A DNA stretch of 64,000 nucleotides from positions 2,356,001-2,420,000 of the forward strand of contig CM026547.1 in assembly GCA_014905635.1 (NCBI GenBank). The letters run 5' to 3'. This document shows positions 52,507-60,400 of this stretch, piece after piece. The translations under genes were made by a program, and so were the position numbers. The notes under the pieces are model-generated. The model searched no databases and had not been told where the DNA came from. It saw only the letters and a program-made list of their open reading frames with translations. The stretch is from Scenedesmus sp. PABB004 (taxonomy: Eukaryota). Position 1 is the stretch's first letter. The number at the start of each line of letters is the position of its first letter.

Positions 52507-53535
52507 ATGGCGACGCTCGACAACCGCCAGTACTTTCCCAGCTTTGACGAGCTGCCGCTCATGGACGAGTTCGTGGACCCCGTCTACTACGCCGACGTGG
52601 GCGGCGGCACGATGCTGCCGACCAAGCACTGGTGCGGCCGCTCACCGGCGCCGCGCCGCGCGCCGCGGACGGCGGTCCTGCAAGGCGCGCGGCGCGGGCG
52701 GTCGTGCAAGGCGCGCGCCGCGGTCGTGCAAGGCGCGTGCCGCCGCGCCGCGCGCCGCAGGGCGTTTGTGGCCGACATCGTGGACGACAGCCTCAGCCAC
52801 GTGCGCGGCGCGGCGCGGCGCGGCGCGGCGCGCGGGTCGGCCGCCCGCCCGCCCCTCTCCCCGCCCGCCCGCCGACACGCCGCCGCCCGCCCCGCCCCGC
52901 CGCCCGGCCGTGCGGCGCGGCGCGCCGTCAGATGGCTGACTTTTTCCACCGCGTCGAGGTGCGCGACCTCACCGGCACGAGCGCGAGCGTGCTCTTCACG
53001 CCCGACCAGCGCATGAACTACGGCCAGCTGCGGCGCGGGTGCACGCTGTTTGTGCGCTACGCGGCCAAGGCCTACTTCAGCGACCTCATCACGCAGGCGC
53101 GCGCGCACCCGCGGCGCACCCGCGGCGCCAGCGCGGCGGGGCCGCCGCTGCGGGGCCGGCGCCGCGCTCTGTGCGCCCTGCGGGGTACCCGGCGCGCACG
53201 CGCTCTCCGACGCCCGTCCTTCATGCCCCCCCCCCCCCCCCCAGGTGATCAAGGTCGAGGACTGCGCGTACGTCAAGGTCATCCCCCGCCCCCTGGACGA
53301 CCTCATGATGCTCAGCGCATGGTACTTTGGCGGCTCAACCTGCGCCGCGTGCCGCGCGCCGCTCGGCGGCGCGGGCGTTGCGTGCGGCCGCTGCGAGGCG
53401 GCGCACTACTGCGGCGGCGCGTGCATGGCCGCGCACGCGCGCGAGCACGCGGCGCACTGCGGGCTGTGCGCGTCGCTGATGCAGGTGCTCAACGTGGACA
53501 TGGACAGATTCATGCAGCCCGTGCCCTTCCGCTAG
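52507..53535 (+). CDS. MYND-type zinc finger protein; 4 exons
   Basis: C-terminal CAAC...CGRC...YC...C...H...HAAHC. N-terminal [21 protein letters not shown] domain. Confidence 0.8.
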
Positions 53536-53661: not shown

Positions 53662-54068
53662 GGGCTGTAGCGGGTAGCAGCACCAAACTACTCTGTGTGT
53701 GGGCCGGAGCGGCGGCACTGCCGGCGGCCCCCCCGACTCGCGGAGGGGGAGCGCCGCGGCGAGGCGTGCTGTGCCCCCTCCTGCCCTCTCTTCACGCACT
53801 CCCCCTGTCCTCAGCAGCTGCATTGCGCGCGCCCTGGGCGCCTCATCGCATGGTTTTCTCGTGGCGCCGCCGCGATCGGTCTTGTCGGGGCGAGGCCGGA
53901 GCGTGGCCCGGCGGGGTGGGGGCGAGGGCGGGGTGGGCTGGGGTGGGGTGGCGCGTGCATGCATGCCACGCGATGCTCGCGGGGCATTCCCGGTGACGCC
54001 GGTCGGCCGGGCGTTCCGCAGCACTCGCGCGCAGCGGCCGCACCGCGCGCCTCGCGGCCGTGTCACGT

Positions 54069-56590
54069 TTACACCGCCGTGGCGGCCGCCGCGTCCCTGA
54101 AGAAGTTTCGGAAGAAGCGCAGCCCCTCGGGCCCGTCGTCGCGGCACAGCACGCCGTGCAGCTCCGCCACGAGCAGCGCCTCGCGCGCGAGCGTCAGCGG
54201 CAGCGCCAGCGCGCCGCTCACGTCCGCCGCCGACAGCGCGGGGCCGAGCGCCGGCGCGCCGCCGTCGTGCGGTGCGCCGCTGCCGGCGCCGCCGGCCGCC
54301 GCCCTGCTGGCGAGCAGCGCCTCGATGCGGCGGCACAGCTGCGCGTCGCTGAACGTCGCGCCCTCCACCACGACGACGCCGCTCGCAAAGCGGCGCAGGC
54401 GCAGCGGCAGCCCCAGCTGCGGGTCGGCGGCGCCCGCGGCGTGCGGGCGGGTCGGCGCGCGGCCGCGCCGCGCCGCGCCGCGCCGCACGCGCCGCGCGCG
54501 CCGCGCGCGCGCGCACCTGGGCGGCGGCCTCGCACGCGAGCAGCAGGTCGTCGGGTGAGACGAGCTCGGTGCCGCGCGCGCGGTTGAACAGACAGTACGC
54601 GTCGGGCAGCAGCAGCACGCCGCCGGCGCGCGCGAGCGGGGCGGCGAGAAAGTCGGCGAGCTGGCGCGCGAGCTCCTGCGTGTACCGCGCGCCCGCGCTC
54701 GCGCGCGTGACGGGGCTGGTGATGCCCATCGCGATGAGCGCGAGCTGCGTGTCCGCGTCGAGCAGCAGCGCCTCGCCGCTGCCGCCGCCGCCGGGCTCGG
54801 CGCCGCCGCCGCCGCCGCCGCGGCGGCGGCGCGGCGTGCGGCAGCGGCAGCACGCTGCCGTCGGGCGCGACCACGCCGCGGAACTTCTCTGCCAGCGCGA
54901 CCATGTCGGCGGCCATGGCCATGAGGGAGCTGAGGTCGGCAAACGCGACGGTGAGGTTGGCGCTCGCCGCGCTGCTGCGCTCCGCCTCGCGCGACATGAT
55001 GCCCGCCACGCCCACGACGCCGCTGCCGCCGCCGCTGCCGCGCACGCCGTGCGCGGCGCTGCTGCCGCCACCAGGCGGCCCCGCGGGCGGCGGCCAGGCG
55101 GCGCTGCTGGGCCCGGCGCCGCCGCCGCCGCCGCCGCGCGGGGCCGCCGCCGCCGCCGGCGCCGGCCGCCGCGGACACCGACCCGACGCCCCAGCCCGGC
55201 AGCGCGCCGCCCTGCACGCCGCCCTGCAGCGCCGCGTGGTAGAGCTGCTGCTGGCGCGCGTGGAGGTGCTGCAGCTGCTGCAGCTCCGCCTTGCTGACGA
55301 GGCTGGGCTCCTGCGGCAGCGGCGCGTCCAGCGCGGCGTCGCCGTCGGCCGCCAGGATCCAGTCCAGCGCGGCCTGCATGTGCTCGCTGCGCGTGGCCAG
55401 CAGCGCACGCAGCACGCGCGGCCGCGGGAAGCCCTGGCGGCGGCGGGCGTGGCGCCCGCGGCGTCAGCGGGGCGGGGGCGCGGCGCGCCCGGGCGGCGCG
55501 GGCGGGGCGCCGCGGCGGCGCGCGCCGCGCACCATGTCGACCAGCGTGTGCAGCAGCTCCTGGTCCACCGCTTCGATCGGCGGCGGCGGCGGCGGCGCCG
55601 CGCCGGCGGGCAGGAGCGGCACGCCGCCGTACGACGACGGCGGCGGCTGGCCGCCGCCCAGGCCCGCCGCGCTGGCGGCGGGGCTGTTGCGCCCCGAGCC
55701 CGCCCACGAGCCCGGCTGCTGCTGCTGCTGCTGCTGCAGCTGCAGGCCGGACGTCAGGGGCGAAGCGGCCGCCCACTGCTGCTGCGCCTGCGACCGCTGC
55801 GCCGGCGCCGGCGGCGGCGCGGCGCGCGCCGCCTGCTCCTGCGCCTGCCGGTGCCCCGCGATGGCGGCGGTGAGGTGCTCGCTGAGCGCGTCGGGGCCCT
55901 CGCCCCGGCAGCGCAGGTGGAGGTAGCGGAACGCCGCGCTCGCTTGCACTGCGACGGCGGCGGCGGGACGCGGCGCGGCGCGGGGGCGGGCGTCGGCGTC
56001 GGCCGCAGGGCCGCCCTCGGCCGCGCCGCGCCGCGCCGCGCCGCGTCCCGCCGCGCTGCGCCGCGCCGCGCTGCCCGTCGCGGCGGCTCACTGCTGCAGG
56101 GCGTGCTTCGCATGTCGACGTAGACCTTGAGCTCGAGGCGCACCTTGGGCGCCATGAGGTTGAGGCCGTAGCCCACGCGCTTCGCGGCCCCCGCGACCGC
56201 CACGAGCGGCAGGCAGCACGACCGCCCCGGCGCGGGGCTCGCCGCCGCGTCCATCCACACCAGGCGCTGGCTGGTCATCACCACGTAGCCGCCCTGGCGG
56301 CGGCGGCGCGCGCCGCGGCGTCGGCGGCGTGCGCAGGCGGCAGCGACGGCGCGCGGCGCCGCTGCGCGCGCACCTGGTAGCGATCGGCGGTCTGGCAGCC
56401 CTCCGTGCCGCCGATGCCCTCGAACTCGAGGTCCACCTGCGAGTGGGCGCCCGCCTGAGGCCGCTGCGCGCCCGGGACGCGTACGGCGGCGCCGCCAGCG
56501 GCCGACCTTGTCCAGCAGCATGCGCTCCACCTCGCTCGCCTCCAGCTGCGGCCGCCCGCTGGGCGTGAGCTTGATGCGCGGCAGGATCAT
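54069..56590 (-). CDS. VPS36: ESCRT-II subunit VPS36 with internal UBA domain; 6 exons, 2 apparent frameshifts
   Basis: GLUE-type N-terminus ([15 protein letters not shown]), then [48 protein letters not shown] and [15 protein letters not shown]. Confidence 0.92.
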
Positions 56591-56768
56591 CGCGCGCCGC
56601 TGCCGCCGCCGCGCGGTGCCGCGCCGTAGGCGAGCGGCGCTGCTGCCGTTGCTGCCGAAGCCCCACGCCCGTGTCCAGCCGCCAGCTGCTGCACCCGCCA
56701 CCCGAAAGGATGGGGAGCTCGAGTGCGGCGGTGCGACGGCGCGGCGGTTGCGAGCGCCGGCGCAGGGT

Positions 56769-56773
56769 TTACA
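56769..56773 (-). promoter_or_regulatory. TGTAA polyadenylation signal of the site-1 protease gene
   Basis: TTACA on the + strand, about 105 nt downstream of the S1P stop codon. Confidence 0.55.
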
Positions 56774-56878
56774 GCACACCCGACCAGTGCCGGGTGCCGG
56801 CCTGGGCCGCCGCCCCCCAGCGCTCGCGCGCGAGGCGCGCGTCCCGAACACACACAGCGCGTCTCTGCCGCGCCGCAG

Positions 56879-57417
56879 CTACGCCTCGGACGGCGAGGGC
56901 GAGCGCCGCACGGCCCCGTAGCCCCACCGCCGCGCCGCCCACTTGCGCGGCGGCGCGCCCGCGGCGCGCATGCGCCACATGACCACCACGCCCGCGACGC
57001 CGGCGACGCAGATGATGCTGGCGAGGCTCACCGCCTGGCTCGTGAACGCGCGGCGCTGCCCCTGCTGCCGCCGCTCGTCGGCGAGCGACGAGTGCGCGCC
57101 CTGCGTCGCCAGCGCGCCGCCGTCGCCCGGCTCCGCGCCGCCGCCGTGCGAGAGCGCGTCGTCCATGAGCTGCCCCGAGTCCACCGTGTCGCGCGGCGCC
57201 CCGTCCGCCTGCTGCACCGCCTGGCCGCCCTGCCCCTGCGCCGCGGCCGGCAGCGGCTCGGCGTAGGGGTCGGCCTTGTCGTCGGCCGCGCCACCCGCGT
57301 CGTCGGAGTCGTCTGGCGGCACGCCGCCGCCGCCGCCCGCGGCCGTCTGGCCGTCCTGCTGCTGCATGGGCGTGCCGTCCCCGGTGGAGGGCGTCGCCAG
57401 CGGCGCGGCGCCGCCCG

Positions 57418-57461
<44 letters not shown>

Positions 57462-60400
57462 GTCTGCTGCTGCTGCGCCGCGCCGCCGCTGCCTGCCGCG
57501 GCGCCTGCCGCGGCGCCCGCCGCGGCGGTTGGCTGGCGCGCCGCCGGCGCGGGCTCGCTGCCGGGCTGCAGGTGGCGGTGCCGCCACTCGTCGCCGGGCG
57601 GGCAGTCGGGGCGGGAGCGGAACTGGCAGGGCGCGGCCATGCCGCAGGCGAGCGGGTGCTGCAGCACCCAGCTGTACTGCGTGAGGTTGACGTCGGGGCG
57701 GCGCTGCGGCGGCGACGTGAACCCCGGTGCGGTGAACGCCGCGCCCAGGCGGCGCTCCGGCGGCGTGAGGTCGGAGCCCTGCTTGAGCAGCAGCTGCTTC
57801 ATGAGGTCCACCAGGAAGTCAAAGCAGGCGCCCATCTGGCAGAGGGGCAGGGAGGCAAGGGGGGGGGGGGGGAGGGGGGGTCAGCGGGCGCGGCGCGGGC
57901 GCCGGCGCTGGCGCTGGCGCCGGCGCGGCGGGGCGCGCGCCCCACGTTGTGGCTGGAGTCGAGGCAGTTTGTGTCGCCCAGCACCGCGACGGACCCCTTG
58001 CCGCTGGGCGTGATGCCAAAGCTCGCGTACTCGCCCGGCACGCCCGCGCCCTTGCCCGCGACGTCGGTGAGCGCCGAGGTGTGCAAGAAGCCGCCCGCCG
58101 GAAACTTGGCGATGTTGGAGCCGTAGAAGAGCTGCGGGCGCGGCGCCAGGTCAGCAGCGGCCAGGTCAGCCGAGGCCAGGCCGGCGGCACGCCCGCGCGG
58201 CCGCGCGCCCGCATGCCGCGCGTGCGCCGCGAGCGCGCCGCGGGCGCGCCTGCACGCTGTGCTTGCCGAGCTGCACGGTGCCCTGCAGGATGCGCTCGCC
58301 GAGCGTGACGGCGTGCGGGGCGAGCAGGTCGTTGAGCGCGGGGACGTTGGCGCCGCCGGTGATGGGCGTCCACCAGCTGCGCGTGTTGTCGTCAAAAAAC
58401 TTCATCGCGCGCAGGCTCTCCTCGTGGTACCTGGCCGGCCGGCGGTCGCACGCGGCGGTCGGCGCGGTCGGCAGGGGTGCAGGGGCGCGGGCCCGAGGGC
58501 GGGCTCCGCGGCGGGCGCCGCGGCCGCGCCGCGCCGCGGGCCGCCGCGCGCACCACTCCGCGAAGACCACGAGCGCCATGCCCTGCTCCTTCACCGCCGC
58601 CGCGAGCGCGTCGACCTCCTCCCTGCCGCGGCGGCGGCGGCGGCGGCGCGCTCGGCGCCCGCGCCCGCGCGCCGCGCCCGCGCGCCGCACGCGCGGCGCG
58701 CCGCCCCTGCCCGCCGCCGGCCACGCCGTGCCGCGGGGCGTTGGGCTCGCGCGCTGGGCGCGGTCTGACCTGTACCACTCCTCCTCTGCGTCGAGCACCA
58801 GGTAGGCGCCGTAGTTGGCCGCGTCGAAGCACGTCCCCGGCGCGCTGAGCACCTCGACGAAGAAGCCCGCGCGCACGAGCGCGTTGAAGGCGTCGTGGTA
58901 GTTGGTGTACGGGTGGTCGCCGTGCCAGTCGAGCACGTCGCTCTGCGGGGGGGGGGGGGGGGGTCAAGAGGCGCGCGCGGGGGCGCGCGGGTCAAGAGGC
59001 ACGCGCGGCGCGCAGGCAGCGCAGGCAGAGAGGCGGCGGCGCGCCGCCGCCGGGGCCACGCCGCCACCGCCGCCCCGCCCCCCCCCCCCCCCCCATCTCC
59101 CGACACACACCGCCACCGCCGCGCGCGCACCTTGACGTCGAGGTTGTCGCGCGGCACGTAGCCGGGCGGGTACTTGATGCTGTGCAGCACGTCCCACACC
59201 ACGCGGCGCTGCCGCGGCGGCGTGGGCGCGATGACCGCGCTCAGCGGCACGCTCACGGTGCTGGTCTGGTTGGACCCGCCCGCGCCCATGCGGGGCGGGC
59301 TGACGATCGTGAACGTCACGCGGCCGGTCGCGTTGCCGCTGAAGTTCCACGCCGCCGGCGACACCTGCGCGCACGGGCACGCGGCGGTGGCGCCGCGCCG
59401 CCGCGCGCGGCCGAGGCACCGGGGCGCGGCGGGGCGCGCGGCGCGCGCACGCGCGGCGGCGGCGCGCGCCTGGACGTGCACCGCGAGGAAGCCGGACCAG
59501 GGCCAGAGCACGTCGCTGTGGGTGAAGGTCACGTGCAGGAGCTTGCCCGCGGCGTTGGTCGCCTCGTAGCGCGGCGGGCCCGCAAAGTAGCCGGTGTTGG
59601 CCATGCCGTTGATGACGGTGCCGTTGAGCACGAGCGGCAGGCCAAACGCGTAGAGGGGCTGGGTGCAGTGCGGCCACACGTAGGGGCAGTCGGCGAGGTG
59701 CAGCGCGGGCGGGATGAGCGACGCGCGGGGCGTGTAGCTCGCCAGGATGGCCTGGCTGGCGGGCAGGTTGATGCGGCCGTTGCCCTGCTCGTGCATGTTG
59801 AGCCCCGGCAGCCGCGCCGCGCCCTCCACCAGTGCCTGCTTCATCGACGCCGGGTTGAGCAGCTGGCGCCGCGGCGGCGTGCGGCGTGTGGGCGGGGCGC
59901 GCGGCGGCGCCGGCGGCAGTTCGCCACCCCGGCACCACCCCCGCCGCGCGGCGCGCGCCTCACCCAGCGCCGCTCCTCCGGCAGCGTGCTCGCGAGCAGG
60001 CAGACCGCGCCCGCGACGACGGGGCTGGCCACGCTCGTGCCGCTGAGGCTGCGGCAGCCGGTCGTGATCTTGCTGCCCGTCACGTCCTTGGCGTACGCCA
60101 TGACGTCGGGCTTGATGCGCCCTGCGCGGCGGAGCGGCGGTCAGCGGCCCGGCGGCCCGGCGGCCCCGGGCGGCCCCGGGCGCGCGGCGCGGCGCGTGTG
60201 CCCGCCGCCGCCGGCGCGTCGCCGCGCCCGCCGCGCCCGCGCGGCGCACCCGTGCCGGTGGGCAGCTCCCAGGTCGTCATGCCGCGGCTGGAGAAGCCGG
60301 CGATCGCGTCGGCGTTGTCGATGCCCCCGACGCCGACGACGTCGGGCTGGTCGGCGGGGTTGTTGAGCGTGCCGTAGAGGGGGCCGTCGTTGCCGATCGC

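Follow-up and report, generated by a model that had tools for sequence, protein, structure and literature searches.

The usual account of ubiquitin recognition by the ESCRT-II complex consists of two cases, the NZF fingers of yeast and the GLUE domain of mammals. The locus described here raises the question of whether green algae have found another one. It lies in a stretch of 64,000 nucleotides of Scenedesmus sp. PABB004, which is the whole of the DNA analysed and is called the window hereafter, and in which a sequence-only reading had noticed a UBA domain inserted in VPS36 between the GLUE domain and the winged-helix core. That reading proposed the domain as a third, convergent solution for the capture of ubiquitinated cargo. 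The ESCRT-II of plants is called the least studied (PMC12051064). This paper discusses the gene, the domain, its distribution and origin, and what it may do.

The VPS36 Gene in the Window

The window, with a G + C content of about 80% throughout, contains one VPS36 (ESCRT-II) gene, on the minus strand (56590-54069). A genome-wide search found no second VPS36 locus in this green alga, which presumably belongs to the Sphaeropleales. The nearest named relative is the gene of Tetradesmus obliquus, with 87-88% identity over the core, and the domains of the product follow in the order GLUE, disordered linker, UBA, second linker and EAP30 core. When exons 1-5 are spliced by their coordinates, a stop-free frame of 353 codons results; the introns between them are all GT-AG, with lengths of 70, 80, 143 and 99 nt.

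Exon 1 (56507-56590, minus strand like all the features of this gene) begins with the ATG at 56590 and contains the start of GLUE; it was placed by tblastn against residues 1-29 of the Tetradesmus orthologue, and a GT donor stands next to it. GLUE continues in exon 2 (56374-56436; 91% identity with residues 27-49 of the orthologue, AG/GT borders) and in exon 3 (56092-56293), which codes for GLUE strands, is 67% identical to the orthologue and matches PF11605 at 18.2 bits (E 0.0028), below the cut-off of 24.1. Exon 4 (55533-55948), an open frame once spliced, carries the final strand and helix of GLUE (which the GLUE alignment ends at about 55833), a first linker rich in Q, P, G and A, and helix 1 of the UBA. 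Thus PF11605 is weak and on one exon; GLUE membership is also indicated by the orthologue profile, which matches both mammalian GLUE structures (2dx5 and 2hth), and by the structural model of an orthologue, which matches 2cay and 2hth.

After the UBA, the second linker (55019-55316) shows short conserved helix-like and GWG motifs, common to Scenedesmaceae-like relatives, and then becomes G/P/S-rich; the first of two frame shifts lies in it near 55140. The conserved helical region that opens the EAP30/Vps36 core (54851-55018) matches EAP30 positions 1-46 at 30.4 bits and aligns with human 2zme_B from residue 4. The second frame shift (near 54810) precedes the first winged helix (54517-54768; EAP30 64.9 bits, 88% identity to the Tetradesmus orthologue), which is followed by a GT-AG intron of 100 nt (54417-54516) and by the last exon with the second winged helix (54069-54416; EAP30 positions 145-219, 35.6 bits) and the TAA at 54071-54069. 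All three EAP30 pieces are over the cut-off, and their best matches are named VPS36 proteins and 2zme_B, that is, they are nearer to VPS36 than to VPS22. The orthologue profile reaches this human VPS36 core at E 1.4e-71. One other EAP30 locus, a candidate VPS22, exists in the genome on another contig.

Several side observations belong here. An S-P-L-T motif at 55760-55740 (minus strand), in the linker before the UBA, is also found in volvocine algae, and the helix-like stretch with its G-W-G motif after the UBA that is conserved in Scenedesmaceae-like relatives spans 55310-55176 (minus strand). The convergent neighbour gene (52508-53535, plus strand) codes for a C-terminal MYND finger (25.7 bits), and one of its introns seems to begin with GC at about 53099. 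The upstream neighbour, at about 56900-60000 and beyond on the minus strand, codes for a site-1 protease (third Ig-like domain of MBTPS1, 89.8 bits) and ends about 300 nt before the VPS36 start. Elsewhere in the genome, the polyubiquitin of the alga (L005:1390-1614 compared with L025) has Gln at position 28, where most fetched eukaryotic ubiquitins have Ala, and an intron interrupts each of its repeats.

The UBA Domain

The UBA covers residues 244-294 of the spliced product, after a complete GLUE, and corresponds to 55568-55317 on the minus strand. Helix 1 (55533-55568, profile positions 1-12) ends with the M of the MGF loop; the G and F of the loop, helices 2 and 3 and an acidic D-x-P-L tail are in exon 5 (55317-55433). 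The 99-nt intron between M and GF (55434-55532; phase 0, GT-AG, CTGAC at -34) contains an in-frame TGA, so it must be spliced, and its retention is ruled out. At the place of this intron the gene calls P0006 and P0022 of relatives show unrelated intervening sequence.

A Pfam search, which had been suggested as a check, gave two different answers for the exon-5 part by itself: UBA_7 (PF22562) was matched at 41.3 bits (E 1.5e-10, cut-off 27), while PF00627, for which helix 1 was absent, stayed at 17.5 bits, below the required 22.4. Against a profile of 16 orthologues from which the window was excluded, the spliced domain matched over the full length of 51 positions at 64.8 bits; after shuffling the 353 residues 1000 times, the highest score was 5.1 bits. 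In five full-length orthologues UBA_7 was matched at 50.5-57.5 bits. In PDB sequences the best match of the exon-5 part is 1whc (E 0.00025), a UBA/UBX protein which is taken here to be UBXN1; the best solved relatives are 1whc, Sts-1 (UBASH3), USP5, USP13 and Arabidopsis UBP14. The resemblance to UBAs of the USP5/UBXN1 type that had been noticed by eye is therefore borne out. Like other UBA_7 domains (UBA1 of USP5, USP13 and UBP14, UBXN1/SAKS1, UBASH3 and plant UBA-PUB), that of algal VPS36 has the MGF loop, A-x-x-W in helix 3, a D-x-P-L tail and three helices, but it differs from them in being a single copy within an ESCRT subunit. The window domain itself shows the MGF loop and, as the hydrophobic end of helix 3, W-I-L.

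The transcript-derived orthologues P0049, P0125 and P0126 have GLUE, UBA and core in one frame, so for these relatives cDNA places the UBA in the VPS36 message. An AlphaFold2 model of P0049, made with 65 aligned sequences, has helices at residues 214-222, 227-236 and 242-252 with pLDDT 93-97; the expected three-helix fold is thus predicted for this orthologue. In the same model GLUE and core are confident, the linkers flanking the UBA are mostly under pLDDT 50, and the pTM is 0.43, as expected of domains tethered by linkers. Foldseek with this model found the core, GLUE and, in addition, the UBA structures 1vek, 2dai and 2dag (E 0.004-0.02).

In 45 complete orthologous UBAs, a set that includes near-copies, the loop reads MGF in 38, has the conservative variants MGY, LGF and IGY in 2 each, and reads ASF in 1. 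Position by position, M is kept in 40, G in 44 and F in 41 of the 45, which makes these the most conserved exposed positions of the domain. The IGY and ASF variants (3/45) all belong to Chlorellales, namely Chlorella and Micractinium (P0054, P0056 and P0121), and keep the rest of the domain. The UBA is at least as close to that of the window as GLUE is in 7 of 10 named relatives, and the linkers around it are very variable (11-165 residues). A side observation is an F/x-x-N-P-L motif after the UBA, which 12 of the 53 UBA-bearing proteins have where composition predicts 0.7, an excess that kinship inflates. It spans Chlorellales, Sphaeropleales and Chlamydomonadales (e.g. P0031, P0049 and P0056), is absent from the window, and is a possible candidate for a linear binding motif.

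Distribution and Origin

Among 1.84 billion representatives, a profile search yielded 860 matches at E 1e-30 or better, the best 150 of which were examined. With the first winged helix as the query, 478 proteins were found; among the best 120 of them, UBA_7 is on record in 38 and in no named land-plant entry. Within P0001-P0250, 165 proteins have a GLUE match together with at least 80% of the core, and 39 of these have the UBA, which in 39/39 stands between a completed GLUE and the core. The carriers belong to the Chlorophyceae, the Trebouxiophyceae, Caulerpa and Tetraselmis, and the named ones include Chlamydomonas, Volvox, Dunaliella, Monoraphidium, Raphidocelis, Tetradesmus, Chlorella, Micractinium, Coccomyxa, Trebouxia, Botryococcus, Tetraselmis and Caulerpa. 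Among the named entries sampled, the UBA was not found in VPS36 of Mesostigma, Chlorokybus, Netrium, Selaginella, mosses, liverworts and flowering plants, nor in that of chytrids, Basidiobolus, a choanoflagellate and Syssomonas. The survey of chlorophyte orthologues that the sequence-only reading had called for shows a domain common to core chlorophytes, which streptophytes and the rest of the sampled eukaryotes lack. The VPS36 of Mesostigma viride (P0129) has a G/S/P-rich GLUE-core linker of 142 residues with no Pfam domain.

In a FastTree phylogeny of 146 core sequences (240 with enough core, minus 44 rows without a GLUE or UBA match and 50 thinned land-plant rows or near-copies), all 53 UBA rows form one clade (0.93) with 0 of the 93 others inside. 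The 44 omitted rows are for the most part gene calls truncated at the N-terminus, with chlorophyte ones among them, and are uninformative on the UBA. In an IQ-TREE phylogeny of 52 chosen rows, based on GLUE and core without the linker, the 25 UBA rows group at 96/91 within a green clade at 100/100. Because the UBA-bearing proteins form one clade, a single gain at the base of the core Chlorophyta is suggested, and the trees are consistent with one gain in the core-chlorophyte ancestor from a donor of the UBA_7 class; this reading rests on thin sampling of the prasinophyte grade and on the best 150 of 860 profile matches, below which a divergent UBA-bearing VPS36 of non-green origin could be ranked. 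With one gain in core chlorophytes, the UBA is independent of the fungal NZF insertion.

By sequence score the class of the donor is clear (UBA_7). In the alga's own genome the UBA-PUB protein scores 44.4 bits, locus L008 45.3 bits and UBA1 of UBP14 17.1 + 28.5 bits on two exons; these three paralogues are alike at 44-46 bits, so none is singled out. A homologue search with the UBA only, among 7 candidates, returned 1 match, the query itself, and was uninformative, and an ESM Atlas search gave no usable match.

Other Inserts in VPS36

The same linker has received another module elsewhere. VPS36 protein P0134 has a UBM (PF14377, HUWE1-type) at residues 172-194, between GLUE and core, with 30.9 bits against a cut-off of 23.3. 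The UBM is also present in 8/8 further members scanned of its cluster (P0252-P0260, a 137-residue fragment being outside the scan) and in a relative 77% identical to P0134. P0297 was grouped with VPS36 of this UBM-bearing type. In the IQ-TREE phylogeny P0134 forms a long branch of the green clade that belongs neither to the UBA clade nor to the streptophytes. A search with its N-terminal part gave 2 matches and so left prasinophyte sampling thin. Judged from these sequences, the UBM is a second, independent insert of ubiquitin-binding type, in VPS36 of an early-branching green lineage. Its occurrence in the same linker points to selection for ubiquitin binding at that place. Furthermore, zinc-finger matches of RanBP or NZF type were found in 16 of 34 non-UBA VPS36 proteins, which were picked because their linkers are long or because they lie near the green clade. 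A zinc-finger scan of UBA-bearing VPS36 gave a match in 0 of 20 proteins, and a GLUE split by NZF was not found in them.

Comparison with Known Systems

Yeast and fungal Vps36 (2cay, 1w7p; PF16988, PF00641) is, like the algal protein, an ESCRT-II subunit with GLUE, tandem winged helices and an added module of ubiquitin-binding type near GLUE. It differs in that the zinc fingers NZF-N and NZF2 are inside a split GLUE, whereas the three-helix UBA of the algae comes after a complete GLUE (39/39); the two modules have separate origins. Yeast GLUE is reported to be without the mammalian ubiquitin site, NZF2 having taken over binding, and loss of the Vps36 site alone leaves sorting normal until the sites of Vps23 and Mvb12 are also gone (PMC2700381). 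Reported variants of Vps36 further include a protein without GLUE in Entamoeba and one with a plain PH domain in Giardia (among PMC10049522, PMC6987245, PMC9192718, PMC1579232 and bioRxiv 2021.02.11.430673).

Mammalian EAP45/VPS36 (2hth, 2dx5, 2zme) shares with the algal protein an unsplit GLUE, the helical region and two winged helices, and differs in having no inserted domain. The arginine of the T-H-R-L strand of mammalian GLUE is retained in 32/33 chlorophytes. The nearest named group without a UBA is streptophyte VPS36 (Arabidopsis At5g04920 type, Mesostigma, Chlorokybus, Netrium), in which GLUE is similar but the linker is mostly 20-50 residues (142 in Mesostigma) and contains no UBA. 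The repeats of animal UBAP1 are SOUBA and have a role in ESCRT-I. UBAP1 is alike in that UBA-like folds serve an ESCRT complex (PMC7253699 and PMC12051064); it differs in belonging to ESCRT-I of animals and in its overlapping repeats, and its profile match is marginal (4ae4, E 0.027).

What the UBA May Do

The algal UBA is probably a tethered ubiquitin receptor of ESCRT-II. GLUE would anchor the complex at the membrane of the endosome, assembly with VPS22 and VPS25 would be the task of the helical region and winged helices, and the UBA, slung between two disordered linkers, would grip the Ile44 patch of cargo ubiquitin by its MGF loop and helix 3. Its role would be that of NZF2 in yeast and of GLUE in mammals, probably in redundancy with TOL and the UEV of VPS23. 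The expectation that it binds ubiquitin comes from its family, the USP13/USP5/UBXN1 class. The drifted loops (ASF, IGY) of Chlorella and Micractinium count against this receptor reading. Prediction of a complex between residues 1-265 of P0049 and a single ubiquitin gave 0.13 and 0.10 against a mark of 0.34; it was run without an alignment, its controls were not folded, and it was counted neither way.

The contacts of mammalian GLUE with ubiquitin are presumably Val67, Phe68, Val83 and His85, a hydrophobic site on strands 5-6. These residues are replaced in chlorophytes as well as in streptophytes and most other eukaryotes, the alignment at 67-70 being loose. At the position of human Val83, R/K stands in 32/33 chlorophytes, and the same basic residue in 44/45 streptophytes. 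A coupling of the UBA gain to loss of the GLUE site is not supported, since streptophytes without a UBA have the same substitutions. Arabidopsis VPS36 is reported to bind ubiquitin with no added domain (PMC7253699). Because streptophyte VPS36 shares the Val83 substitution and yet is reported to bind, green GLUE may have a different mode of ubiquitin binding and the UBA an accessory role, adding to GLUE binding instead of replacing it. The proposal of a third, convergent solution holds in part: the UBA is a single gain (96/91) independent of the fungal NZF, while "third" undercounts, given the UBM of another green lineage and the Arabidopsis protein.

A loss elsewhere in the pathway was also considered. 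Locus L019 (G000:C29, about 54000-57146) is the single VHS locus above the cut-off in the genome; with a partial GAT match (13.8 bits, cut-off 31) it is probably a TOL/TOM1 gene. As this TOL-like VHS locus and loci for the UEV of VPS23 and for VPS28 are all in the genome, the UBA fills no obvious gap, and compensation for a lost TOL or ESCRT-I is not supported.

The strongest rival explanation, though an unlikely one, is that binding is regulatory: the UBA would fold back onto the ubiquitin of modified ESCRT subunits, or help to place a ligase or a deubiquitinase, and GLUE would bind cargo as in plants. Long flexible linkers of 11-165 residues would permit such binding in cis, plant VPS36 manages without a UBA as just mentioned, and ubiquitination of ESCRT-0 subunits is reported to change their own ubiquitin binding (PMC7253699). 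However, the mammalian GLUE site, as listed above, is not kept in chlorophytes, and the other ubiquitin-binding modules of Vps36 are reported as cargo-sorting sites (PMC2700381).

It is still less likely that the fold serves another partner, such as the C-terminal domain of VPS28 or a ubiquitin-like protein, or self-association, and binds ubiquitin weakly. A few orthologues lack MGF, as this would allow, but the loop comprises the most conserved exposed positions. The helical region of human VPS36 binds VPS28, and the corresponding region is intact in the window, which also speaks against it. The inserted finger NZF-N of yeast does contact Vps28 (PMC4276913). Against this, the USP13 UBAs, of the same class, are reported to use the M and F of MGF for ubiquitin binding, slightly preferring K63, and not to bind ISG15 or SUMO (PMC3247260).

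Finally, the assembly changes frame twice 3' of the UBA, at about 55140 between UBA and core and at about 54810 within the core. Both sites are GGC/CGG runs, and relatives read straight across both. Introns as the cause were rejected, because the candidate GT-AG introns that restore the frame would delete codons conserved in relatives. For these three reasons the two shifts are probably assembly errors in a very G + C-rich genome. That the locus is instead decaying or mis-assembled, with the UBA exons outside a working VPS36 mRNA, is very improbable in spite of the two shifts, since it is the only VPS36 locus found, its matched exons have no stop, its core identity is 87-88%, and transcripts of three relatives join all the parts in one frame; even if real, such a defect would leave the clade-wide architecture unaffected.

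Significance

The UBA-bearing VPS36 is real and clade-wide, and apparently undiscussed. No description of it was found in the full-text literature on VPS36/EAP45 in green algae, while subscription papers on ESCRT evolution may mention it. The supplement of PMC4028247 lists CRE03.G159750 as the Chlamydomonas orthologue, with no remark on a UBA in 12 of its 29 files. Pfam UBA_7 matches are precomputed for VPS36 proteins in the protein collection, so the domain is already visible in databases even if undiscussed. The finding is a domain-architecture variant of a well-known protein, and the yeast work suggests that such sites are redundant.

The clade-wide UBA, together with the UBM in the same linker elsewhere, suggests a function rebuilt from unrelated modules. 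A discrete and removable domain in a model alga (Chlamydomonas VPS36, CHLRE_03g159750) is suited to measuring the share of ESCRT-II in cargo capture, and the IGY and ASF UBAs of Chlorella and Micractinium are natural test cases for binding. A bolder view, offered tentatively as possible rather than probable, is that green GLUE is a poor ubiquitin binder, that modules have repeatedly landed in the linker behind it, the UBA once and the UBM separately, in parallel to the fungal NZF, and that the UBA is the main and possibly chain-selective cargo receptor. If this were true, Chlamydomonas would lend itself well to finding out if cargo binding by ESCRT-II is required and if the modules are interchangeable.
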